From: Carpediemonas membranifera BICM
Lineage: Eukaryota > Protista > Fornicata
Direction: 5' to 3'
DNA: 64,000 nucleotides
Assembly (NCBI GenBank): GCA_019828565.1
Contig: JAHDYR010000006.1
Span: 248,001 to 312,000, forward strand
A program made the position numbers and the translations under genes. Shown in pieces: positions 1 through 61,872 of this stretch (the first letter of the stretch is position 1; the number at the start of each line of letters is the position of its first letter). The notes under the pieces were generated by a model. It did no database searches, was not told where the DNA came from, and saw only the letters and a program-made list of their open reading frames with translations.

Positions 1-3000
1 GCCTTGCGGCGCTAAACCGTCCGTTAACGTCAGCGCCGAATTCAAGGAGTAGAAGAATGAGGTCGTCAAATCCATTAAAAGCAGCAGTTGTCAAGGGCGA
101 GCCATATTCGCAGTTGTAAGCTGTATACGCCCCTCCGTCGAGCAGCACACCGGCAGCGCTGAGGTTCCCCTGGATGCAGGTCATCATGAGGGCCGTGCGG
201 CAATCTTTGTCACGCAGGTCGAGGGTCGCCCCGGCATCGATGAGCAACTTGAGTATCTCGACGTGGTTATTGGTCGCAGCGGCAATGAGCGGGGTCCAGC
301 CATTGTTGTCTCGGTGGTCTGGATCAGCACGGTGCTCGAGGAGGAGGCTGACCATGTCAGCGTGGCCTCCGAAGGCGGCACGTAAGAGGGGGGACCAGCT
401 GTCGTTGTCGGCGATGTCAATCATAGACTTATTGGTGTCCAACAAAAGAGTTGCTATTTCGACAAACCCCTTCTCGGCTGCAATAAACAGTGCGCTGCTG
501 CCACTCGAGTGGACCTTGGTGCAGTCCGCCCCGGCAGCAAGCAGTGATCTGGTGCACTCGGCGTGACCCCGTAAACACGTCAGCATGAGAGCCGTGAATC
601 CTTCGTCGTTCTGCAGGTCGAGGGTCGCCCCGGCATCGATGAGCAACTTGAGTATCTCGACGTGGTTATTGGTCGCAGCGGCAATGAGCGGCGTCCGACC
701 ATTGTTGTTACGCTGGTCGAGGGTCGCCCCGCGCTCGATGAGGAGACGGACGACGTCGTCATGACCCTTGGCTGATGCGGCGAACAGAGGTGACGAGCCA
801 TCGTTATTGGCGACGTTGATCATGGACTGATTGGCGTCCAGCAGTAGCTTGACGATGCCAGCAAAGCCAAAGTATGCAGCGAGAAACAGAGCACTGGCGC
901 CCGTGGAAGAAACCTTGGTGCAGTCTGCGCCGGCACTTAGCAGAAAGCCAGCGCTGTCCGCGTGTCCGTTGACGCAGGCTACCATGAGCGCAGTCCTGCC
1001 ATCTTTCTCCTGCAGGTCGAGGGTCGCCCCGGCATCGATGAGCAACTTGAGTATCTCGACGTGGTTATTGGTCGCAGCGGCAATGAGCGGGGTCCAGCCA
1101 TTGTTGTCTCGGTGGTCTGGATCAGCACGGTGCTCGAGGAGGAGGCTGACCATGTCAGCGTGGCCTCCGAAGGCGGCACGTAAGAGGGGGGACCAGCTGT
1201 CGTTGTCGGCGATGTCAATCATAGACTTATTGGTGTCCAACAAAAGAGTTGCTATTTCGACAAACCCCTTCTCGGCTGCAATAAACAGTGCGCTGCTGCC
1301 ACTCGAGTGGACCTTGGTGCAGTCCGCCCCGGCAGCAAGCAGTGATCTGGTGCACTCGGCGTGACCCCGTAAACACGTCAGCATGAGAGCCGTGAATCCT
1401 TCGTCGTTCTGCAGGTCGAGGGTCGCCCCGGCATCGATGAGCAACTTGAGTATCTCGACGTGGTTATTGGTCGCAGCGGCAATGAGCGGCGTCCGACCAT
1501 TGTTGTTACGCTGGTCGAGGGTCGCCCCGCGCTCGATGAGGAGACGGACGACGTCGTCATGACCCTTGGCTGATGCGGCGAACAGAGGTGACGAGCCATC
1601 GTTATTGGCGACGTTGATCATGGACTGATTGGCGTCCAGCAGTAGCTTGACGATGCCAGCAAAGCCAAAGTATGCAGCGAGAAACAGAGCACTGGCGCCC
1701 GTGGAAGAAACCTTGGTGCAGTCTGCGCCGGCACTTAGCAGAAAGCCAGCGCTGTCCGCGTGTCCGTTGACGCAGGCTACCATGAGCGCAGTCCTGCCAT
1801 CTTTCTCCTGCAGGTCGAGGGTCGCCCCGGCATCGATGAGCAACTTGAGTATCTCGACGTGGTTATTGGTCGCAGCGGCAATGAGCGGGGTCCAGCCATT
1901 GTTGTCTCGGTGGTCTGGATCAGCACGGTGCTCGAGGAGGAGGCTGACCATGTCAGCGTGGCCTCCGAAGGCGGCACGTAAGAGGGGGGACCAGCTGTCG
2001 TTGTCGGCGATGTCAATCATAGACTTATTGGTGTCCAACAAAAGAGTTGCTATTTCGACAAACCCCTTCTCGGCTGCAATAAACAGTGCGCTGCTGCCAC
2101 TCGAGTGGACCTTGGTGCAGTCCGCCCCGGCAGCAAGCAGTGATCTGGTGCACTCGGCGTGACCCCGTAAACACGTCAGCATGAGAGCCGTGAATCCTTC
2201 GTCGTTCTGCAGGTCGAGGGTCGCCCCGGCATCGATGAGCAACTTGAGTATCTCGACGTGGTTATTGGTCGCAGCGGCAATGAGCGGCGTCCGACCATTG
2301 TTGTTACGCTGGTCGAGGGTCGCCCCGCGCTCGATGAGGAGACGGACGACGTCGTCATGACCCTTGGCTGATGCGGCGAACAGAGGTGACGAGCCATCGT
2401 TATTGGCGACGTTGATCATGGACTGATTGGCGTCCAGCAGTAGCTTGACGATGCCAGCAAAGCCAAAGTATGCAGCGAGAAACAGAGCACTGGCGCCCGT
2501 GGAAGAAAACCTTGGTGCAGTCTGCGCCGGCACTTAGCAGAAAGCCAGCGCTGTCCGCGTGTCCGTTGACGCAGGCTACCATGAGCGCAGTCCTGCCATC
2601 TTTCTCCTGCAGGTCGAGGGTCGCCCCGGCATCGATGAGCAACTTGAGTATCTCGACGTGGTTATTGGTCGCAGCGGCAATGAGCGGGGTCCAGCCATTG
2701 TTGTCTCGGTGGTCTGGATCAGCACGGTGCTCGAGGAGGAGGCTGACCATGTCAGCGTGGCCTCCGAAGGCGGCACGTAAGAGGGGGGACCAGCTGTCGT
2801 TGTCGGCGATGTCAATCATAGACTTATTGGTGTCCAACAAAAGAGTTGCTATTTCGACAAACCCCTTCTCGGCTGCAATAAACAGTGCGCTGCTGCCACT
2901 CGAGTGGACCTTGGTGCAGTCCGCCCCGGCAGCAAGCAGTGATCTGGTGCACTCGGCGTGACCCCGTAAACACGTCAGCATGAGAGCCGTGAATCCTTCG

Positions 3001-6000
3001 TCGTTCTGCAGGTCGAGGGTCGCCCCGGCATCGATGAGCAACTTGAGTATCTCGACGTGGTTATTGGTCGCAGCGGCAATGAGCGGCGTCCGACCATTGT
3101 TGTTACGCTGGTCGAGGGTCGCCCCGCGCTCGATGAGGAGACGGACGACGTCGTCATGACCCTTGGCTGATGCGGCGAACAGAGGTGACGAGCCATCGTT
3201 ATTGGCGACGTTGATCATGGACTGATTGGCGTCCAGCAGTAGCTTGACGATGCCAGCAAAGCCAAAGTATGCAGCGAGAAACAGAGCACTGGCGCCCGTG
3301 GAAGAAACCTTGGTGCAGTCTGCGCCGGCACTTAGCAGAAAGCCAGCGCTGTCCGCGTGTCCGTTGACGCAGGCTACCATGAGCGCAGTCCTGCCATCTT
3401 TCTCCTGCAGGTCGAGGGTCGCCCCGGCATCGATGAGCAACTTGAGTATCTCGACGTGGTTATTGGTCGCAGCGGCAATGAGCGGGGTCCAGCCATTGTT
3501 GTCTCGGTGGTCTGGATCAGCACGGTGCTCGAGGAGGAGGCTGACCATGTCAGCGTGGCCTCCGAAGGCGGCACGTAAGAGGGGGGACCAGCTGTCGTTG
3601 TCGGCGATGTCAATCATAGACTTATTGGTGTCCAACAAAAGAGTTGCTATTTCGACAAACCCCTTCTCGGCTGCAATAAACAGTGCGCTGCTGCCACTCG
3701 AGTGGACCTTGGTGCAGTCCGCCCCGGCAGCAAGCAGTGATCTGGTGCACTCGGCGTGACCCCGTAAACACGTCAGCATGAGAGCCGTGAATCCTTCGTC
3801 GTTCTGCAGGTCGAGGGTCGCCCCGGCATCGATGAGCAACTTGAGTATCTCGACGTGGTTATTGGTCGCAGCGGCAATGAGCGGCGTCCGACCATTGTTG
3901 TTACGCTGGTCGAGGGTCGCCCCGCGCTCGATGAGGAGACGGACGACGTCGTCATGACCCTTGGCTGATGCGGCGAACAGAGGTGACGAGCCATCGTTAT
4001 TGGCGACGTTGATCATGGACTGATTGGCGTCCAGCAGTAGCTTGACGATGCCAGCAAAGCCAAAGTATGCAGCGAGAAACAGAGCACTGGCGCCCGTGGA
4101 AGAAACCTTGGTGCAGTCTGCGCCGGCACTTAGCAGAAAGCCAGCGCTGTCCGCGTGTCCGTTGACGCAGGCTACCATGAGCGCAGTCCTGCCATCTTTC
4201 TCCTGCAGGTCGAGGGTCGCCCCGGCATCGATGAGCAACTTGAGTATCTCGACGTGGTTATTGGTCGCAGCGGCAATGAGCGGGGTCCAGCCATTGTTGT
4301 CTCGGTGGTCTGGATCAGCACGGTGCTCGAGGAGGAGGCTGACCATGTCAGCGTGGCCTCCGAAGGCGGCACGTAAGAGGGGGGACCAGCTGTCGTTGTC
4401 GGCGATGTCAATCATAGACTTATTGGTGTCCAACAAAAGAGTTGCTATTTCGACAAACCCCTTCACGGCTGCAATAAACAGTGCGCTGCTGCCACTCGAG
4501 TGGACCTTGGTGCAGTCCGCCCCGGCAGCAAGCAGTGATCTGGTGCACTCGGCGTGACCCCGTAAACACGTCAGCATGAGAGCCGTGAATCCTTCGTCGT
4601 TCTGCAGGTCGAGGGTCGCCCCGGCATCGATGAGCAACTTGAGTATCTCGACGTGGTTATTGGTCGCAGCGGCAATGAGCGGCGTCCGACCATTGTTGTT
4701 ACGCTGGTCGAGGGTCGCCCCGCGCTCGATGAGGAGACGGACGACGTCGTCATGACCCTTGGCTGATGCGGCGAACAGAGGTGACGAGCCATCGTTATTG
4801 GCGACGTTGATCATGGACTGATTGGCGTCCAGCAGTAGCTTGACGATGCCAGCAAAGCCAAAGTATGCAGCGAGAAACAGAGCACTGGCGCCCGTGGAAG
4901 AAACCTTGGTGCAGTCTGCGCCGGCACTTAGCAGAAAGCCAGCGCTGTCCGCGTGTCCGTTGACGCAGGCTACCATGAGCGCAGTCCTGCCATCTTTCTC
5001 CTGCAGGTCGAGGGTCGCCCCGGCATCGATGAGCAACTTGAGTATCTCGACGTGGTTATTGGTCGCAGCGGCAATGAGCGGGGTCCAGCCATTGTTGTCT
5101 CGGTGGTCTGGATCAGCACGGTGCTCGAGGAGGAGGCTGACCATGTCAGCGTGGCCTCCGAAGGCGGCACGTAAGAGGGGGGACCAGCTGTCGTTGTCGG
5201 CGATGTCAATCATAGACTTATTGGTGTCCAACAAAAGAGTTGCTATTTCGACAAACCCCTTCTCGGCTGCAATAAACAGTGCGCTGCTGCCACTCGAGTG
5301 GACCTTGGTGCAGTCCGCCCCGGCAGCAAGCAGTGATCTGGTGCACTCGGCGTGACCCCGTAAACACGTCAGCATGAGAGCCGTGAATCCTTCGTCGTTC
5401 TGCAGGTCGAGGGTCGCCCCGGCATCGATGAGCAACTTGAGTATCTCGACGTGGTTATTGGTCGCAGCGGCAATGAGCGGCGTCCGACCATTGTTGTTAC
5501 GCTGGTCGAGGGTCGCCCCGCGCTCGATGAGGAGACGGACGACGTCGTCATGACCCTTGGCTGATGCGGCGAACAGAGGTGACGAGCCATCGTTATTGGC
5601 GACGTTGATCATGGACTGATTGGCGTCCAGCAGTAGCTTGACGATGCCAGCAAAGCCAAAGTATGCAGCGAGAAACAGAGCACTGGCGCCCGTGGAAGAA
5701 ACCTTGGTGCAGTCTGCGCCGGCACTTAGCAGAAAGCCAGCGCTGTCCGCGTGTCCGTTGACGCAGGCTACCATGAGCGCAGTCCTGCCATCTTTCTCCT
5801 GCAGGTCGAGGGTCGCTCCGGCATCGATGAGCAACTTGAGTATCTCGACGTGGTTATTGGTCGCAGCGGCAATGAGCGGCGTCCGACCATTGTTGTTACG
5901 CTGGTCGAGGGTCGCCCCGCGCTCGATGAGGAGACGGACGACGTCGTCATGACCCTTGGCTGATGCGGCGAACAGAGGTGACGAGCCATCGTTATTGGCG

Positions 6001-9000
6001 ACGTTGATCATGGACTGATTGGCGTCCAGCAGTAGCTTGACGATGCCAGCAAAGCCAAAGTATGCAGCGAGAAACAGAGCACTGGCGCCCGTGGAAGAAA
6101 CCTTGGTGCAGTCTGCGCCGGCACTTAGCAGAAAGCCAGCGCTGTCCGCGTGTCCGTTGACGCAGGCTACCATGAGCGCAGTCCTGCCATCTTTCTCCTG
6201 CAGGTCGAGGGTCGCCCCGGCATCGATGAGCAACTTGAGTATCTCGACGTGGTTATTGGTCGCAGCGGCAATGAGCGGGGTCCAGCCATTGTTGTCTCGG
6301 TGGTCTGGATCAGCACGGTGCTCGAGGAGGAGACGGACGACGTCGTCATGACCCTTGGCTGATGCGGCGAACAGAGGTGACGAGCCATCGTTATTGGCGA
6401 CGTTGATCATGGACTGATTGGCGTCCAGCAGTAGCTTGACGATGCCAGCAAAGCCAAAGTATGCAGCGAGAAACAGAGCACTGGCGCCCGTGGAAGAAAC
6501 CTTGGTGCAGTCTGCGCCGGCACTTAGCAGAAAGCCAGCGCTGTCCGCGTGTCCGTTGACGCAGGCTACCATGAGCGCAGTCCTGCCATCTTTCTCCTGC
6601 AGGTCGAGGGTCGCCCCGGCATCGATGAGCAACTTGAGTATCTCGACGTGGTTATTGGTCGCAGCGGCAATGAGCGGGGTCCAGCCATTGTTGTCTCGGT
6701 GGTCTGGATCAGCACGGTGCTCGAGGAGGAGGCTGACCATGTCAGCGTGGCCTCCGAAGGCGGCACGTAAGAGGGGGGACCAGCTGTCGTTGTCGGCGAT
6801 GTCAATCATAGACTTATTGGTGTCCAACAAAAGAGTTGCTATTTCGACAAACCCCTTCTCGGCTGCAATAAACAGTGCGCTGCTGCCACTCGAGTGGACC
6901 TTGGTGCAGTCCGCCCCGGCAGCAAGCAGTGATCTGGTGCACTCGGCGTGACCCCGTAAACACGTCAGCATGAGAGCCGTGAATCCTTCGTCGTTCTGCA
7001 GGTCGAGGGTCGCCCCGGCATCGATGAGCAACTTGAGTATCTCGACGTGGTTATTGGTCGCAGCGGCAATGAGCGGCGTCCGACCATTGTTGTTACGCTG
7101 GTCGAGGGTCGCCCCGCGCTCGATGAGGAGACGGACGACGTCGTCATGACCCTTGGCTGATGCGGCGAACAGAGGTGACGAGCCATCGTTATTGGCGACG
7201 TTGATCATGGACTGATTGGCGTCCAGCAGTAGCTTGACGATGCCAGCAAAGCCAAAGTATGCAGCGAGAAACAGAGCACTGGCGCCCGTGGAAGAAACCT
7301 TGGTGCAGTCTGCGCCGGCACTTAGCAGAAAGCCAGCGCTGTCCGCGTGTCCGTTGACGCAGGCTACCATGAGCGCAGTCCTGCCATCTTTCTCCTGCAG
7401 GTCGAGGGTCGCCCCGGCATCGATGAGCAACTTGAGTATCTCGACGTGGTTATTGGTCGCAGCGGCAATGAGCGGGGTCCAGCCATTGTTGTCTCGGTGG
7501 TCTGGATCAGCACGGTGCTCGAGGAGGAGGCTGACCATGTCAGCGTGGCCTCCGAAGGCGGCACGTAAGAGGGGGGACCAGCTGTCGTTGTCGGCGATGT
7601 CAATCATAGACTTATTGGTGTCCAACAAAAGAGTTGCTATTTCGACAAACCCCTTCACGGCTGCAATAAACAGTGCGCTGCTGCCACTCGAGTGGACCTT
7701 GGTGCAGTCCGCCCCGGCAGCAAGCAGTGATCTGGTGCACTCGGCGTGACCCCGTAAACACGTCAGCATGAGAGCCGTGAATCCTTCGTCGTTCTGCAGG
7801 TCGAGGGTCGCCCCGGCATCGATGAGCAACTTGAGTATCTCGACGTGGTTATTGGTCGCAGCGGCAATGAGCGGGGTCCAGCCATTGTTGTCTCGGTGGT
7901 CTGGATCAGCACGGTGCTCGAGGAGGAGGCTGACCATGTCAGCGTGGCCTCCGAAGGCGGCACGTAAGAGGGGGGACCAGCTGTCGTTGTCGGCGATGTC
8001 AATCATAGACTTATTGGTGTCCAACAAAAGAGTTGCTATTTCGACAAACCCCTTCACGGCTGCAATAAACAGTGCGCTGCTGCCACTCGAGTGGACCTTG
8101 GTGCAGTCCGCCCCGGCAGCAAGCAGTGATCTGGTGCACTCGGCGTGACCCCGTAAACACGTCAGCATGAGAGCCGTGAATCCTTCGTCGTTCTGCAGGT
8201 CGAGGGTCACCCCGGCATCGATGAATAAGTCAATGATCTCGACATGACCCCAACATGCGGCGGCGATGAGCGGGTTATCATGCAGGTCTGAGGGATGATT
8301 GACGCCGGCGCCACGGTCGAGCAGGAGTCTGGCACAGCGAGCATGCCCACTGACAGAAGCTGCGAACAGGGGCGACTTGCCATCCTTATTGGTCACGTCA
8401 ACCATATCGGGTGCCGCATCCAGCAGCAGTTCGGCGATGTCTGTATCACTGAAGGCGGTGGCGATGTACAGGGCGGTGCGGCCGTTGGAGAACAAGGCCT
8501 TGGTGCAGTCGGCACCGGTGTCAAGAAGAGACCTGACAGCGTCCACGTGGCCATTCTCACACGCTGCAATGAGGGCGGTGTAGCCGTCCTCGTCCTGCAG
8601 GTCGACCCCAGCCCCGACATTGGTCAGCAGCTCGACAACATCCGTGTGTCCACCAGCAGCAGCAGCATTGAGGGCAGTTCGTCCGGCAGCACCGCGGAGG
8701 TCTGGGCCAGCCCCGGACTGCAGCGCCTCTCGCACCGTGACCAGTGAACCAGCGGCCGCGGCCTCGATTAGAAGCGTCCATTGGGAAGCACTTGACGCTA
8801 AGACTGTACCTTTGCTCTCCAAAGACGTTACTTCTCCGGCCTTGGCGCCTTCGGGGCCGACGGTCGGGGGCATGCTGGCTTGAGGCTGCGAGGCGACATC
8901 CGAAGGGACAAACGGCGAGATGTGGGCACAATAGTTGCAGTTTTCGTCTTGTGAGTATGTTGCAGGACTGTAGCTATGTGGGTTAGTGATGCTGATGCCT

Positions 9001-39788: not shown

Positions 39789-40301
39789 TGCTGACGTCCA
39801 CGAAGAAGACGCTTTTGTGGAAGCTCTGGAGAAGGCAATCCAACTCGCCCTCCACTCCGAGGGCTACTCAGGCTCCGACATCTCCATCGTGGTGCGGGAT
39901 GCCCTGTTCCAGCCCATCCGGCAGCTCCAGACAACAACGCACTTTAAGCCAACACAGACGGCGGAGGGCACCAAGTGGCTGGCCTGCGCGCCTTCAGACG
40001 AGGGTGCAGTGGAACGGGACATCATGTCGTTCGAGGGCTCTGAGGTGAACGTGCCGCCCGTGTCGGCGGAGAACTTCTTCCGGGCCCTGGATCGGGTCAA
40101 GCCGTCCGTGTCGAAGGAGGATGCCGAGGCACTCGCCAACTGGCAGTATGGTGACGGTGAATAGGGTTCTTTTTATTTTTTTAAACTGGCATGGCCCCCC
40201 GCTCTGCTTATGCTCTTTATTGTTGAGAAGACGATCTCCCTACTGACTTAAGACGTGAGTAGGAGGGAGACAGGGCAGTGTTGCGCAGTATAAACACATT
40301 G
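39789..40301. repeat. 513-bp direct duplicate of 52714-53226 (Vps4 fragment, hairpin and terminal repeat motif)
   Basis: Constant offset of 12925 bp; only two substitutions noticed, both in the subterminal hairpin. Confidence 0.95.
39859..40164 (+). pseudogene. VPS4: Vps4-type AAA ATPase C-terminal fragment (copy 1)
   Basis: EGYSGSDISIVVRDALFQPIRQLQTTTHFK...CAPSDEGA...KPSVS matches the Vps4 lid, beta domain and C-terminus. No Walker A/B or MIT domain lies upstream. Confidence 0.8.
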
Positions 40302-40309
40302 ATCGTCGA

Positions 40310-40352
40310 TGTGCTATTGAAGGGTCAAACAATGTGTTTATACTGCGCAACA
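40310..40352 (+). mobile_element. 43-bp solo end unit (mini-element) with a 5-bp GTCGA target-site duplication
   Basis: GTCGA[TGTGCTATTGAAGGGTCAAACAATGTGTTTATACTGCGCAACA]GTCGA; 42/43 identical to the reverse complement of 53204-53246. Confidence 0.85.
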
Positions 40353-40416
40353 GTCGACTTACTTTAAACTGCACCACAACACGTCGATTATTAACAGCAC
40401 TGTCAGTTCGTCAGCA

Positions 40417-40830
40417 ATGGCGAAAAGAGCAGGCACTACAAAGAAGAAACGCGGACCGCCACGGGGTATGAAACCCGTTGCCCTCCGAGACAATGCTACT
40501 CCCATAGAACAGTTCATTCATGGCCGAATGGAGGGCATTGAGCAGACAACGAATCTGAAGCAATGCCTCAAGTTCCCCGCTGCACGTATCAAGTCCATTA
40601 TGCGCGCTGATCCACACGTACGCATGATTTCCGCCGATGCCACTGCCATCGTGTCGAAGGCAGCCGAACTATTTGTCCTCGAGGTCACCAAGCGCGCGCT
40701 AGATAGGCTTGGTGAGGACAGGAAGTGCCTGATGCAGACAGACATCATTGATTCTCTGCGCGACGACGAGTCCTTTGACTTTCTCGTGGACCTCTTCAGA
40801 CCGGACAGACCGCCCGTAGCGCCCAAGTAA
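40417..40830 (+). CDS. Histone-fold protein, NF-YC/CHRAC/Dpb3-like
   Basis: FPAARIKSIMRADPHV.MIS.DA..IVSKAAELFV...DFLVD motif. Confidence 0.9.
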   Translation: MAKRAGTTKKKRGPPRGMKPVALRDNATPIEQFIHGRMEGIEQTTNLKQCLKFPAARIKSIMRADPHVRMISADATAIVSKAAELFVLEVTKRALDRLGEDRKCLMQTDIIDSLRDDESFDFLVDLFRPDRPPVAPK

Positions 40831-50791: not shown

Positions 50792-50965
50792 GGTGTGAGT
50801 GGATCCACATTGTGTGCTCTCGCGTTGCACCTGTTTCAGCATACACCCCCGTGTCTCTTGGCACCCTCCACCCAGTCTCACCTATAAAGTTCATCCGCCA
50901 CCCTGGTAAAACTGGTGATGTCTCCAGTCTTCGTCCTCGGGTAACACCAGGCCCGCTTCGATTGT

Positions 50966-50995
50966 ACCTTACCTTACCTTACCTTACCTTACCTT
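50966..50995. repeat. (ACCTT)6 microsatellite, reading (TAAGG)n on the minus strand
   Basis: Six perfect pentamer copies. Confidence 0.95.
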
Positions 50996-51054
50996 CCGCT
51001 GGTGCGAGAACCAAGATCCCGCCCAGAACCGGCGCCCAGAACCCTCTTCTTCGA

Positions 51055-51134
51055 TGTTGCGCAGTATAAACACATTGTTCGAACCTCCCAGACAGGGCCT
51101 GAAAGGAACGATCAAAGTGCCAAACTGCACAACA
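51055..51134 (-). ncRNA. Candidate omegaRNA scaffold: 80-nt hairpin between the stop codon and the element end
   Basis: The arms are 38 and 39 nt. All six transition differences between them form G-U pairs on the minus (gene-sense) strand. The position matches TnpB/Fanzor guide scaffolds. Confidence 0.6.
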
Positions 51135-52556
51135 TCATCCGTCAGCAGACGAATGGTGGCGGTTAGCCAATTGATGATACTGGAATGATGTTGGAAGGCG
51201 CGGGATCGAGGTGCGACTGAATGGAGAGCCACTGAGCTCATCTTCCGTGGCAAGAGAACGCCACAGGATGTTCTCTGCAGCACTCTTGTCCCGATGATCA
51301 ACATTCAGAGCATCAGGAACTGTTGCGCGCCACTGAGCACCACGGCACTGTGGATTTTCGCAGAGCATCACACGATGTGGGTGAACGTGCTGGTCATCAC
51401 GCGGACGAACTCGCTTGTAGGGGGCGTGGCAGTGAGGGCAGACGACGGTGGTGCGGTCCTCGTTAACCATGTTAAGATCGACGACAATGTTATACCTCTT
51501 GAGAAGGGGTACTATCTCTCTCGCGAACTTTCGATATGGCGCGCAAGGAATGAACATACCAGCAGGCGTGGTGAATCCCGAGCTCCCGTAGAAGGCTTTC
51601 AGGCGAATGGGGGTGGGGATGGGATGGTGGCGACGCCAACCGAACTCCCGCAGACGGCCCATTGACCTGGGGTTGTCCCGGTAGCGTCTTTTCTGCTCTT
51701 CTGTCAACGGATTGGTGGCGTGTGGGAGTGCGTGATTAATTCCCACACGATGACAGAAATTATCATTCAGTAGGCCCATCGTGTCACCGTAGGCCATGAA
51801 GCCCGGTCGGACGGGGGCCATGGGCACGATCGGAACGAGGCGAGGCTGGCGGAGCGACATCGAGTACTCCCCGTTGAAGTGGCTGATGAGGCCACTCAAC
51901 GTCTCCACTCCGTCAGCAATTGCCCAGACGCAAGAGAGAATGCGTGGGGCAGCCTGGGAGACTGGGAGCCCGTCGTTCTCACCCATGTGAGTCGCCCAGA
52001 ACAGCGAGGGGAGACACGCAAGGATCTCAGGGTTGACCATGTTGAGGATGGCGTGAACGCCGGCCAACTCCTGCTCGAAGAAGGCCGGAGAGCCAACACC
52101 TGCGAGAGCTTCTTCGAGTCGGGCGAGGGTGCCCTGTAGCCTGTCACGGTACGTCGTCACCGTGCGGGCGAGCCACAGCTTCACAGAGTTGGCGTATCGG
52201 ATGAACCACTTCCGGAGACTGGGACTCACTCCAAGCAACGCCAAACGACCTTTGAGCTGCGCGACCAGATCCTGCGTGGTAGTCTCCCGCCACATCGGCA
52301 GAGTGTCGAGCGACTGCACGATGGCCGCGTAGGCCTGACCCGGCTGACCGCCGCGTACATGAGTGAGCAGTCCGTTGTGGAAGTCGGCGTCATGTAGGGG
52401 GAGTTGCCGGCGCTGCGCATAGCATTCAACCGCGAGCCGGGCCAGCAGGCATGAGTAGAGATATTTTGCTGCGGCGTAATCCCCCACTCTCCGTTCTTCG
52501 GTGTAGTTCTGTCTGAAAGCTTGCTTGATGGAGGCTTTGATCGTATATATCTCCAT
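51135..52556 (-). CDS. Fanzor/TnpB-like RNA-guided protein (473 aa from MEIYTIK; the ORF extends to 52604)
   Basis: Numbering follows the 489-aa ORF: FYGSSGF...PCAPYRKF, VNE382DRTTVVC389PHC392, C415ENPQC420, HRD439KSAAENI and terminal PFSR. The N-terminal TIKASIK and the VPIVP..P.RPGFM segment are Fanzor1-like. No clear RuvC-I D-P/L-G. Confidence 0.82.
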   Translation of the reverse strand: MEIYTIKASIKQAFRQNYTEERRVGDYAAAKYLYSCLLARLAVECYAQRRQLPLHDADFHNGLLTHVRGGQPGQAYAAIVQSLDTLPMWRETTTQDLVAQLKGRLALLGVSPSLRKWFIRYANSVKLWLARTVTTYRDRLQGTLARLEEALAGVGSPAFFEQELAGVHAILNMVNPEILACLPSLFWATHMGENDGLPVSQAAPRILSCVWAIADGVETLSGLISHFNGEYSMSLRQPRLVPIVPMAPVRPGFMAYGDTMGLLNDNFCHRVGINHALPHATNPLTEEQKRRYRDNPRSMGRLREFGWRRHHPIPTPIRLKAFYGSSGFTTPAGMFIPCAPYRKFAREIVPLLKRYNIVVDLNMVNEDRTTVVCPHCHAPYKRVRPRDDQHVHPHRVMLCENPQCRGAQWRATVPDALNVDHRDKSAAENILWRSLATEDELSGSPFSRTSIPRLPTSFQYHQLANRHHSSADG

Positions 52557-52783
52557 CTTGTTGCGCACTACAGGTGTGCAGCTGGTCATTGATGAAGATG
52601 TCATAAGAGCCGACGATGAACACCATTACCAGCATATACAAGTGTAGAAGTGAATTTAATGTGGAATAGAAGACAATGAGACGACGTGTGAGCGATTGTG
52701 ATGTTTGCAGCTGTGCTGACGTCCACGAAGAAGACGCTTTTGTGGAAGCTCTGGAGAAGGCAATCCAACTCGCCCTCCACTCC

Positions 52784-53089
52784 GAGGGCTACTCAGGCTC
52801 CGACATCTCCATCGTGGTGCGGGATGCCCTGTTCCAGCCCATCCGGCAGCTCCAGACAACAACGCACTTTAAGCCAACACAGACGGCGGAGGGCACCAAG
52901 TGGCTGGCCTGCGCGCCTTCAGACGAGGGTGCAGTGGAACGGGACATCATGTCGTTCGAGGGCTCTGAGGTGAACGTGCCGCCCGTGTCGGCGGAGAACT
53001 TCTTCCGGGCCCTGGATCGGGTCAAGCCGTCCGTGTCGAAGGAGGATGCCGAGGCACTCGCCAACTGGCAGTATGGTGACGGTGAATAG
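52784..53089 (+). pseudogene. VPS4: Vps4 C-terminal fragment (copy 2), cargo inside the element
   Basis: Identical translation to 39859-40164. Confidence 0.8.
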
Positions 53090-53284
53090 GGTTCTTTTTA
53101 TTTTTTTAAACTGGCATGGCCCCCCGCTCTGCTTATGCTCTTTATTGTTGAGAAGACGGTCTCCCTACCGACTTAAGACGTGAGTAGGAGGGAGACAGGG
53201 CAGTGTTGCGCAGTATAAACACATTGTTGGACCCTTCAATAGCACATTCGATAAAGCCTTATTCTGCGAAATAGCTCGACCTCA

Positions 53285-61020: not shown

Positions 61021-61872
61021 TGTAGCGGGGTATGAATAGTGGTAAAGCAGGTCATGTTTCTGTCTTTGTTGCCTGGTCTCCTGTCATGACTTGTGGCGTC
61101 CCTGCTTCTCTCCGCTGGGGCAGAGGCCAGTGGAAGGATTGCTGGGTCTCAAAGGGTCGGCCGATCATATACGGTTGACTTAGCGGTATTTGAACGGTTC
61201 AGAGCGCCAGGCAGACTCATTAATGACTGCCTCATGTAACATGTATTCTGCGACCCTCATCGGCATTGACGACGAGCGCCAGCGCTGCCGCGACAGCGCA
61301 GATAACTCATGATTATTTATATCCTGCGGGTAGCGTAATTATGGACCAACGTACGTAACTACACTGCGGTGAGGGTCTGGTTCGTAGCACAATTCATTTT
61401 GACAGTTCCATTTATGAGCCAACTCACGTAGCACATAATAAAAGGTCGAGGCCTACCTCTACGCGTCAGCAGCCAGATTTTACATCCCTGCCCGCAAGAT
61501 CGCCCTTACCATGGCTGATGCCCTCATGTCCGCTACCCTGTTGGTGTATGACAAGAGGTGCGCCAAGCTGGGACTGTTCAACCCGCTGGAGCTCCTTCCG
61601 GCAGGGCTGTCGGCATAAGCCAGCAATTTACGTGAGATAAATGGAAAATCACAGGAAATGACGCAGTCAAATCGGATGATTGAGTCAGGATCGACTCAGC
61701 GGCGCTACACAAGCTCGCTCCGTTTCCCTTGTCTTTATTGGGAGGGCGTCCACGCCCCAACCGAGCCGGCGGGCGGCGGACGCAGTCCCGATGAGATCCT
61801 CTCCCTAAGACAGTAAAAGGCGCGAGTCATCCGAGTCAATCATAATCTGCACCACAAGAAACCACGAACTCA

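Follow-up and report, generated by a model that had tools for sequence, protein, structure and literature searches.

The 43-bp unit, the full-length element and the inverted fragment

The window, by which we mean the whole 64,000-nucleotide stretch of DNA analysed here, comes from the free-living protist Carpediemonas membranifera and carries a short solo unit of 43 bp (40310–40352, plus strand) upstream of a host histone-fold (CBF/NF-Y-like) gene (40417–40830, plus strand). The unit starts with TG, ends with CA and is flanked on both sides by GTCGA (40305–40309 and 40353–40357, plus strand), as the initial annotation had described. It corresponds to the left end of a 2192-bp non-autonomous Fanzor element on the minus strand (51055–53246), which has TG..CA ends of its own and is bordered by 5-bp duplications (left, 53247–53251; right, 51050–51054; both minus strand) that read TCGAA in element orientation and TTCGA on the plus strand. 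Two further claims of the initial annotation hold at this level: the solo equals the outer 43 bp of the upstream end of the big element (53204–53246, minus strand; aligned as 53246–53204) with a single mismatch, which falls at nt 18, and it carries both termini, since exactly its last 25 bp (40328–40352, plus strand) are also those of the right end (30/32 positions when the comparison is extended). The unit is therefore made up of 18 left-specific nucleotides and 25 shared ones, accompanied by one 5-bp duplication. When duplication lengths of 1 to 12 bp were tried at the solo and at the big element, 5 bp was the sole fit at each; TG..CA termini and an exact 5-bp duplication are present at 2/2 sites, and a 5-mer is repeated by chance at the solo spacing at 173 of 55,447 positions (0.3%).

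The boundaries of the solo are supported by contigs from public sequencing runs, because those with unrelated flanks break off exactly at its edges. Contigs of this kind stop exactly before 40310 in runs X1, X2, X4 and X5 (4, 4, 2 and 1, respectively), and three in run X4 stop directly behind 40352; the four runs represent at most two samples. The solo had been proposed as independent support for the boundaries of the large element, and the contig breaks strengthen that proposal. Among the contigs listed from the public runs, none bridges the solo with both of its flanks (40301–40357), and neither a full-length nor an empty allele was seen at the solo site. One other left end, seen at a loose end behind 40301 in X5, also has the A that the solo carries at nt 18. 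A 24-nt pattern taken from the shared repeat matched nothing in viral contigs or in metagenome contigs. The solo is a short non-coding unit with a target-site duplication, as a MITE would be, but the label "MITE" attached to it earlier is unsupported because terminal inverted repeats are lacking in solo and element beyond TGT/ACA, an alignment that 34% of random 20-mers equal.

In the big element, the last 80 nt (51055–51134, minus strand) form a single long hairpin (-42.2 kcal/mol, z -7.5, reached by 0/200 shuffles), whose 3' arm is the shared 25-bp repeat. Judged by its fold, this hairpin is a predicted guide-RNA (omega/reRNA) scaffold, and Fanzor guide scaffolds are described as sitting at the right end of their elements (PMC10711439). 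An Rfam search of 50900–53150 returned four matches, all far below the curated thresholds. The 18 nt preceding the right repeat resemble the left tip weakly (p 0.04), and the right-end version recurs in 4/4 gene models that read through the right end; the two ends thus differ in a fixed manner, unlike LTRs. Next to the hairpin lies a Fanzor1-type ORF (51135–52604, minus strand), Fanzors being predicted RNA-guided DNA cutters, and no transposase or Rep ORF was seen inside the element. The initial annotation of the solo mentioned neither this Fanzor gene nor the place of the shared repeat in the hairpin. A 12/14 match to the end of the unit at 52559–52572 (minus strand) precedes by two bases the second ATG in frame with the Fanzor ORF, and a short GGTAA tandem repeat (50965–50994) marks the end of the gene adjoining the right flank. 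Elsewhere in the window, positions 78–8400 hold about 21 tandem copies of a 399-bp unit. The copies alternate between two types (100% within, 73% between) and lie in an ORF of 2270 aa on the minus strand, whose frame is broken by one base near 2400.

Beside the solo lies an inverted 513-bp fragment of the element (39789–40301, minus strand), which corresponds to element nt 21–533 with two mismatches. Its tip holds a third copy of the shared repeat (40279–40301); both the fragment and this third copy were absent from the initial annotation. The first bases of the fragment lie inside the shared repeat, the gap to the solo is 8 bp (ATC plus the left duplication GTCGA), and the fragment/solo junction shows weak microhomology. 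At the far junction (39789), a 350-nt contig of X1 and X2 runs through with no difference. Folded alone, the 43-bp unit is no better than its shuffles, and the segment 40279–40352 forms a strong hairpin (z -9.1). This segment was also considered as a MITE with 23-bp inverted repeats and rejected: its left arm extends as element body over 513 bp, and the segment lacks a duplication that would belong to it.

Both the inverted fragment and the big element contain a captured 385-bp piece from the 3' part of a VPS4 gene (element nt 98–482), located at 39840–40224 and 52765–53149 (both plus strand), matching Pfam Vps4_C and lacking from other copies. The VPS4-free form is seen in contigs of 4/4 runs (joint 39815–40225) and in gene model P0008, and a VPS4-like upstream loose end appears at 39840 in run contigs. 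The captured segment comprises the 3' end of the gene and its downstream region in antisense to Fanzor, in the manner of a Pack-type capture, and differs at one site from the covering contig of X1 and X2. No VPS4-type Walker A motif was found in the window, so the complete VPS4 gene is likely to lie elsewhere. If a full VPS4-carrying copy stood at 40310, the inverted fragment would complete a 513-bp palindrome with a 28-bp spacer.

The Fanzor family and its target sites

The ORF of the element has 12 homologues besides the window protein, all of them named proteins of Carpediemonas membranifera. We compared 85 proteins, of which 54 belong to the element's family, 20 and 10 to two sister families, and one is unrelated. 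The 52 tagged gene models of the element's family correspond to at least 48 other loci after merging, a figure that is a lower bound. Three fingerprints, as defined for Fanzors in PMC10711439, were sought: the RuvC-I DPG, a catalytic E six residues before the CxxC zinc finger, and the RuvC-III D. All three are present in 14/54 family proteins and in 9/30 sister-family proteins, and the Fanzor1 TDG motif of the WED domain (STDGV/KTDGV) is conserved across all three families. One family member, KAG9392881.1 (= P0025), is among the HMM hits for Fanzor tabulated in PMC10711439 (Table S2); the species goes unmentioned in the supplements of PMC10530073. Missing from the window copy are about 160 residues, among them the TDG motif and the RuvC-I DPG, and from its sequence this copy is likely to be inactive; internal deletions are present within the family.

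General searches added little. Two structure predictions of family proteins had a mean pLDDT of about 40 (low confidence), and Foldseek with these models found nothing at E<=0.001. A profile search of the PDB gave Cas12f at E 0.32, a single-protein search of solved structures gave 0 hits, a Pfam TNB domain match fell below the cutoff, and NCBIfam held nothing relevant for the Fanzor proteins. No relatives were found outside the species except one near-identical record (P0045), a transcriptome entry labelled Copromyxa protea that is 98–99% identical to the C-terminal 140 aa of the Fanzor and for which contamination seems more likely than transfer. The two further Fanzor families of the same species (P0047, P0049 and P0058–P0085) share about 34–53% identity and have intact-looking catalytic motifs, and models such as P0058 and P0060 look like mosaics between families. 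On the minus strand, about 100 bp at 61498–61593 resemble the N-terminal extension of the sister-family model P0085 (62% aa, E 3e-5), possibly as a remnant or shared flank. Carpediemonas membranifera offers three related compact Fanzor families, with fullest models of about 600 aa and an 80-nt predicted scaffold.

A joint from 40299 to 40225 in X1 and X2 indicates that some copies carry an apparent tandem module, made of the shared repeat and the next hairpin-like 60 nt, with a different 12-nt piece starting TG in front. The X1 loose end before 40278 shows a right-type tip, five bases and then a variant left end with about 20 bp of the family's left tip and no shared repeat; it is possibly a tandem or circle-type junction, perhaps with a sister family or an autonomous partner. 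Just inside the left end (40225–40290), the summed contig depth reaches about 5000 in X1 and X2, several-fold above neighbouring genes. This depth may reflect many copies or abundant RNA, which contigs do not distinguish, and contig depths were not taken as evidence of expression because no run is on record as RNA.

The initial annotation had further noted that both insertions duplicate N+TCGA and had taken this to suggest a target preference. The former is correct on the plus strand (GTCGA and TTCGA), but the two insertions point in opposite ways. As a rule the preference fails: TCGA occurs in 0/7 one-sided outside flanks of other copies, a count compatible with partial enrichment of up to about 35%. 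Three of these flanks come from single-contig loose ends (ATTAC, ACCAC and CGTCA, the last with a right-type tip on one side and a variant left end on the other), and four from back-translated gene models (CARAA, GR.., a stop codon and TGCCN), none of which can hold TCGA; four consensus rows that each merge 2–4 contigs were excluded from the count. With the window sites included, TCGA is found at 2/9 (p 0.007), but the window sites had prompted the idea, and the test set is the 0/7. A T two bases before the duplication (4/4 left flanks) was noticed post hoc and is unsupported.

A different regularity is shared by both window sites on the plus strand, where NTCGA is followed after 6 or 7 bp by a 15-mer that matches the last 15 nt of the unit at 12 positions. 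At the solo, this host promoter-like motif lies at 40364–40378 (plus strand), 6 bp after the duplication, and X4 and X5 contigs begin at 40376 after an adapter-like leader. At the big element, it lies at 53259–53273 (plus strand), 7 bp past the duplication and upstream of a PI3/PI4-kinase gene. A score of 12/15 is reached by 0/1645 intergenic 40-mers and 3/2625 window 40-mers. Of 13 occurrences of the core TAWWCTGCR outside the element, 5 fall in the 100 nt that precede a same-strand ATG, a zone that makes up 2.6% of the sequence. These two sites suggest that a host promoter motif is mimicked, and perhaps targeted, by the end of the element, and we treat this as a lead because the pattern was drawn from the very examples on which it was tested. 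Tentatively, and with more doubt than belief, one may combine these features into a composite-like Fanzor transposon, in which the 25-bp repeat would serve as right transposase end, guide-RNA scaffold arm and TAWWCTGCR promoter mimic, the element would be steered to positions 6–7 bp upstream of the motif in host promoters, and the 43-bp unit would be shed as a solo or hop alone.

Origin of the 43-bp unit

The 43-bp unit is probably a solo scar. It is the left end of a multicopy Fanzor element, and a full copy would have lost its body between the 25-bp direct repeats while keeping its 5-bp duplication. Several points argue for this collapse. First, the make-up of the solo is exactly as expected for a crossover in the shared 25 bp. 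Second, the adjacent inverted fragment belongs to the VPS4-carrying variant, whereas 4/4 runs show the VPS4-free form. Third, the geometry of the 513-bp palindrome is as expected from fold-back repair and would tie the solo to a body lost at the same site. In its favour, too, are the A at nt 18 shared with another left end, the independent contigs across the far junction of the fragment, the internal deletions within the family and the precedent of solo terminal repeats in the DNA transposon KolobokP (PMC9587614). Recombination between the direct repeats was one of the origins considered in the initial annotation; it now appears likely, and the adjacent body fragment favours it.

The collapse would have taken three steps. 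A borrowed integrase-type DDE transposase, to which the TG..CA ends and the 5-bp duplication point, would have inserted a VPS4-carrying copy at the solo site. A break just outside its left end would then have been patched by reverse copying of nt 21–533, with either the folded-back strand or the sister copy at a distance of 12.9 kb as template, giving the 513-bp palindrome. Finally, annealing or a template slip between the two repeats would have removed the body. Since such a loss does not regenerate the empty site, the Fanzor of the element would be unable to cut the resulting scar again. Repair in the host would fit: metamonads reportedly have no Ku or DNA-PKcs but retain alternative end joining and single-strand annealing, and Carpediemonas membranifera is reported to be haploid (PMC8516963). 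Several points weigh against the collapse: the site has shown no full-length or empty allele, none of the listed contigs bridges the solo, a homology of 25–32 bp is short, the microhomology at the fragment/solo junction is only weak, the inverted fragment could be an independent arrival from the copy at 52714–53226, no transposase was seen in the element, and the solos of KolobokP are put down in part to excision and transposition of their own (PMC9587614).

A first alternative, which we consider unlikely, is that the 43-bp unit is itself mobile, its left and right tips making a complete mini-element on which the Fanzor element was built as a composite. Both tips and a clean 5-bp duplication are indeed present, but the unit has no inverted repeat, 43 bp is very short for two ends meeting in one complex, and self-mobility leaves the body fragment 8 bp away unexplained. 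A candidate second solo exists in X5 record 31, where a left-type unit is followed by a base that differs from the element's internal start. The variant left end at the X1 loose end before 40278 fits as well, sharing about 20 bp with the family's tip but not the repeat, and the repeats of KolobokP appear able to excise alone (PMC9587614).

The fixed difference between the two ends bears most directly on a second alternative, a miniature, TRIM-like LTR retroelement of which the unit would be a true solo LTR. Such an element would account for the TG..CA ends, the 5-bp duplication, the terminal direct repeats and the weak resemblance of the right end to the whole unit (p 0.04), and in one contig the sequence that follows an adapter-like leader begins with nt 7 of a unit. 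Reverse transcription would, however, equalise the ends, which differ in their first 18 nt with the right version in 4/4 read-through models; by eye, there is also no primer-binding site after the left end and no clear polypurine tract before the right repeat. We regard the solo-LTR reading as largely refuted and its chances as small.

Slighter still is the chance that the solo and the hairpin that it makes with the inverted fragment are an assembly artefact at a repeat-rich spot. The absence of a listed contig bridging 40301–40357 and the 40279–40352 hairpin (z -9.1), which is hard to sequence, could be read in this way, but contig sequence in X1 and X2 crosses the far junction (39789) with no difference, two sites distinguish the fragment from the big copy and one the solo, and a site-specific 5-bp duplication is not something that misassembly can create. 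The least probable route is an HUH/Rep (Replitron- or Helitron-like) or tyrosine-recombinase reaction via the direct repeats with the solo as an excision scar: Replitrons do have short terminal direct repeats and a right-end hairpin (PMC10288648), and Geminivirus-like Rep and helitron-like genes are reported in the species (PMC8516963), but the element encodes no such enzyme, and its fixed 5-bp duplication and sharp TG..CA ends at both sites differ from the Replitrons described in PMC10288648, which mostly lack a duplication or have variable ones with fuzzy ends.

Taken as the remnant of a collapsed full copy, the solo itself is one ordinary-looking recombination scar. Fanzors are thought to hold transposons in place by re-cutting empty donor sites, and published Fanzor models link the cut motif to a fixed target duplication. 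The family described here appears to be flanked by variable 5-bp sequences, to lack inverted repeats and to carry direct repeats that would permit collapse into a scar uncuttable by Fanzor, and it points to a transposase that would be supplied from elsewhere. With its host reported to be haploid and to lack NHEJ, it would constitute a natural test both of Fanzor homing with random targets and of escape from it.

Relation to known mobile elements

The element resembles the non-autonomous Fanzor1 transposons in its Fanzor ORF with DPG, TDG and the alternative catalytic E, in its structured right end and in having no transposase of its own (PMC3627910, PMC10711439). The host elements named for Fanzors include Mariner, Sola2, MuDR, Harbinger, hAT, EnSpm, piggyBac, IS4-type, Helitron and Crypton elements as well as unclassified families (PMC3627910, PMC13565253). 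The combination of TG..CA ends, a variable 5-bp duplication and a right-end arm repeated at the left end is absent from the Fanzor hosts described in the accessible parts of PMC3627910, the Yoon preprint and PMC13565253, and the accessible part of the last, a 2026 review, states that there is no evidence of Fanzor-encoding retrotransposons. In the open literature, searched by title and opening of the abstract, we found no report on this family, on Fanzor in Carpediemonas or on Fanzor together with Ginger, composite and direct-repeat structures, although supplementary tables could list similar elements. We consider the direct-repeat design of the ends unusual.

Three other classes share parts of this design. 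The solo LTRs of LTR retrotransposons and TRIMs have in common with the unit the TG..CA ends, the 5-bp duplication and a likely origin by recombination between terminal direct repeats, but the Carpediemonas element does not end in identical LTRs (identity covers the final 25 of the 43 bp), the unit is as short as 43 bp, and neither priming signals nor a reverse transcriptase was seen in the element. Integrase-type DDE transposons are generally bounded by inverted repeats, and neither such repeats nor an encoded enzyme was seen here. The likeness to this class (Ginger2, IS3, IS481 and IS1202) lies in TG..CA termini and 4–5-bp duplications (PMC10045372). Replitrons (Craig 2023, PMC10288648) share short terminal direct repeats and a right-end hairpin, but they use a Rep HUH transposase, their duplications are absent or variable, and their right ends are fuzzy.

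The closest analogue in architecture is KolobokP, a DNA transposon that has a direct repeat at either end, solos with target duplications and a homing-type nuclease as passenger (PMC9587614); solos and multimers have both been described (Kojima and Bao 2022, PMC9587614). Its repeats, however, measure about 450 or 660 bp, contain their own 11–18-bp inverted repeats and have RR..YY termini, and it encodes a DDD/E transposase together with a His-Me nuclease (PMC9587614). The Carpediemonas element has instead a repeat of 25–43 bp, TG..CA termini, no inverted repeats and a Fanzor passenger, so that repeat size, termini and genes place it outside KolobokP, although the two work in a similar way.
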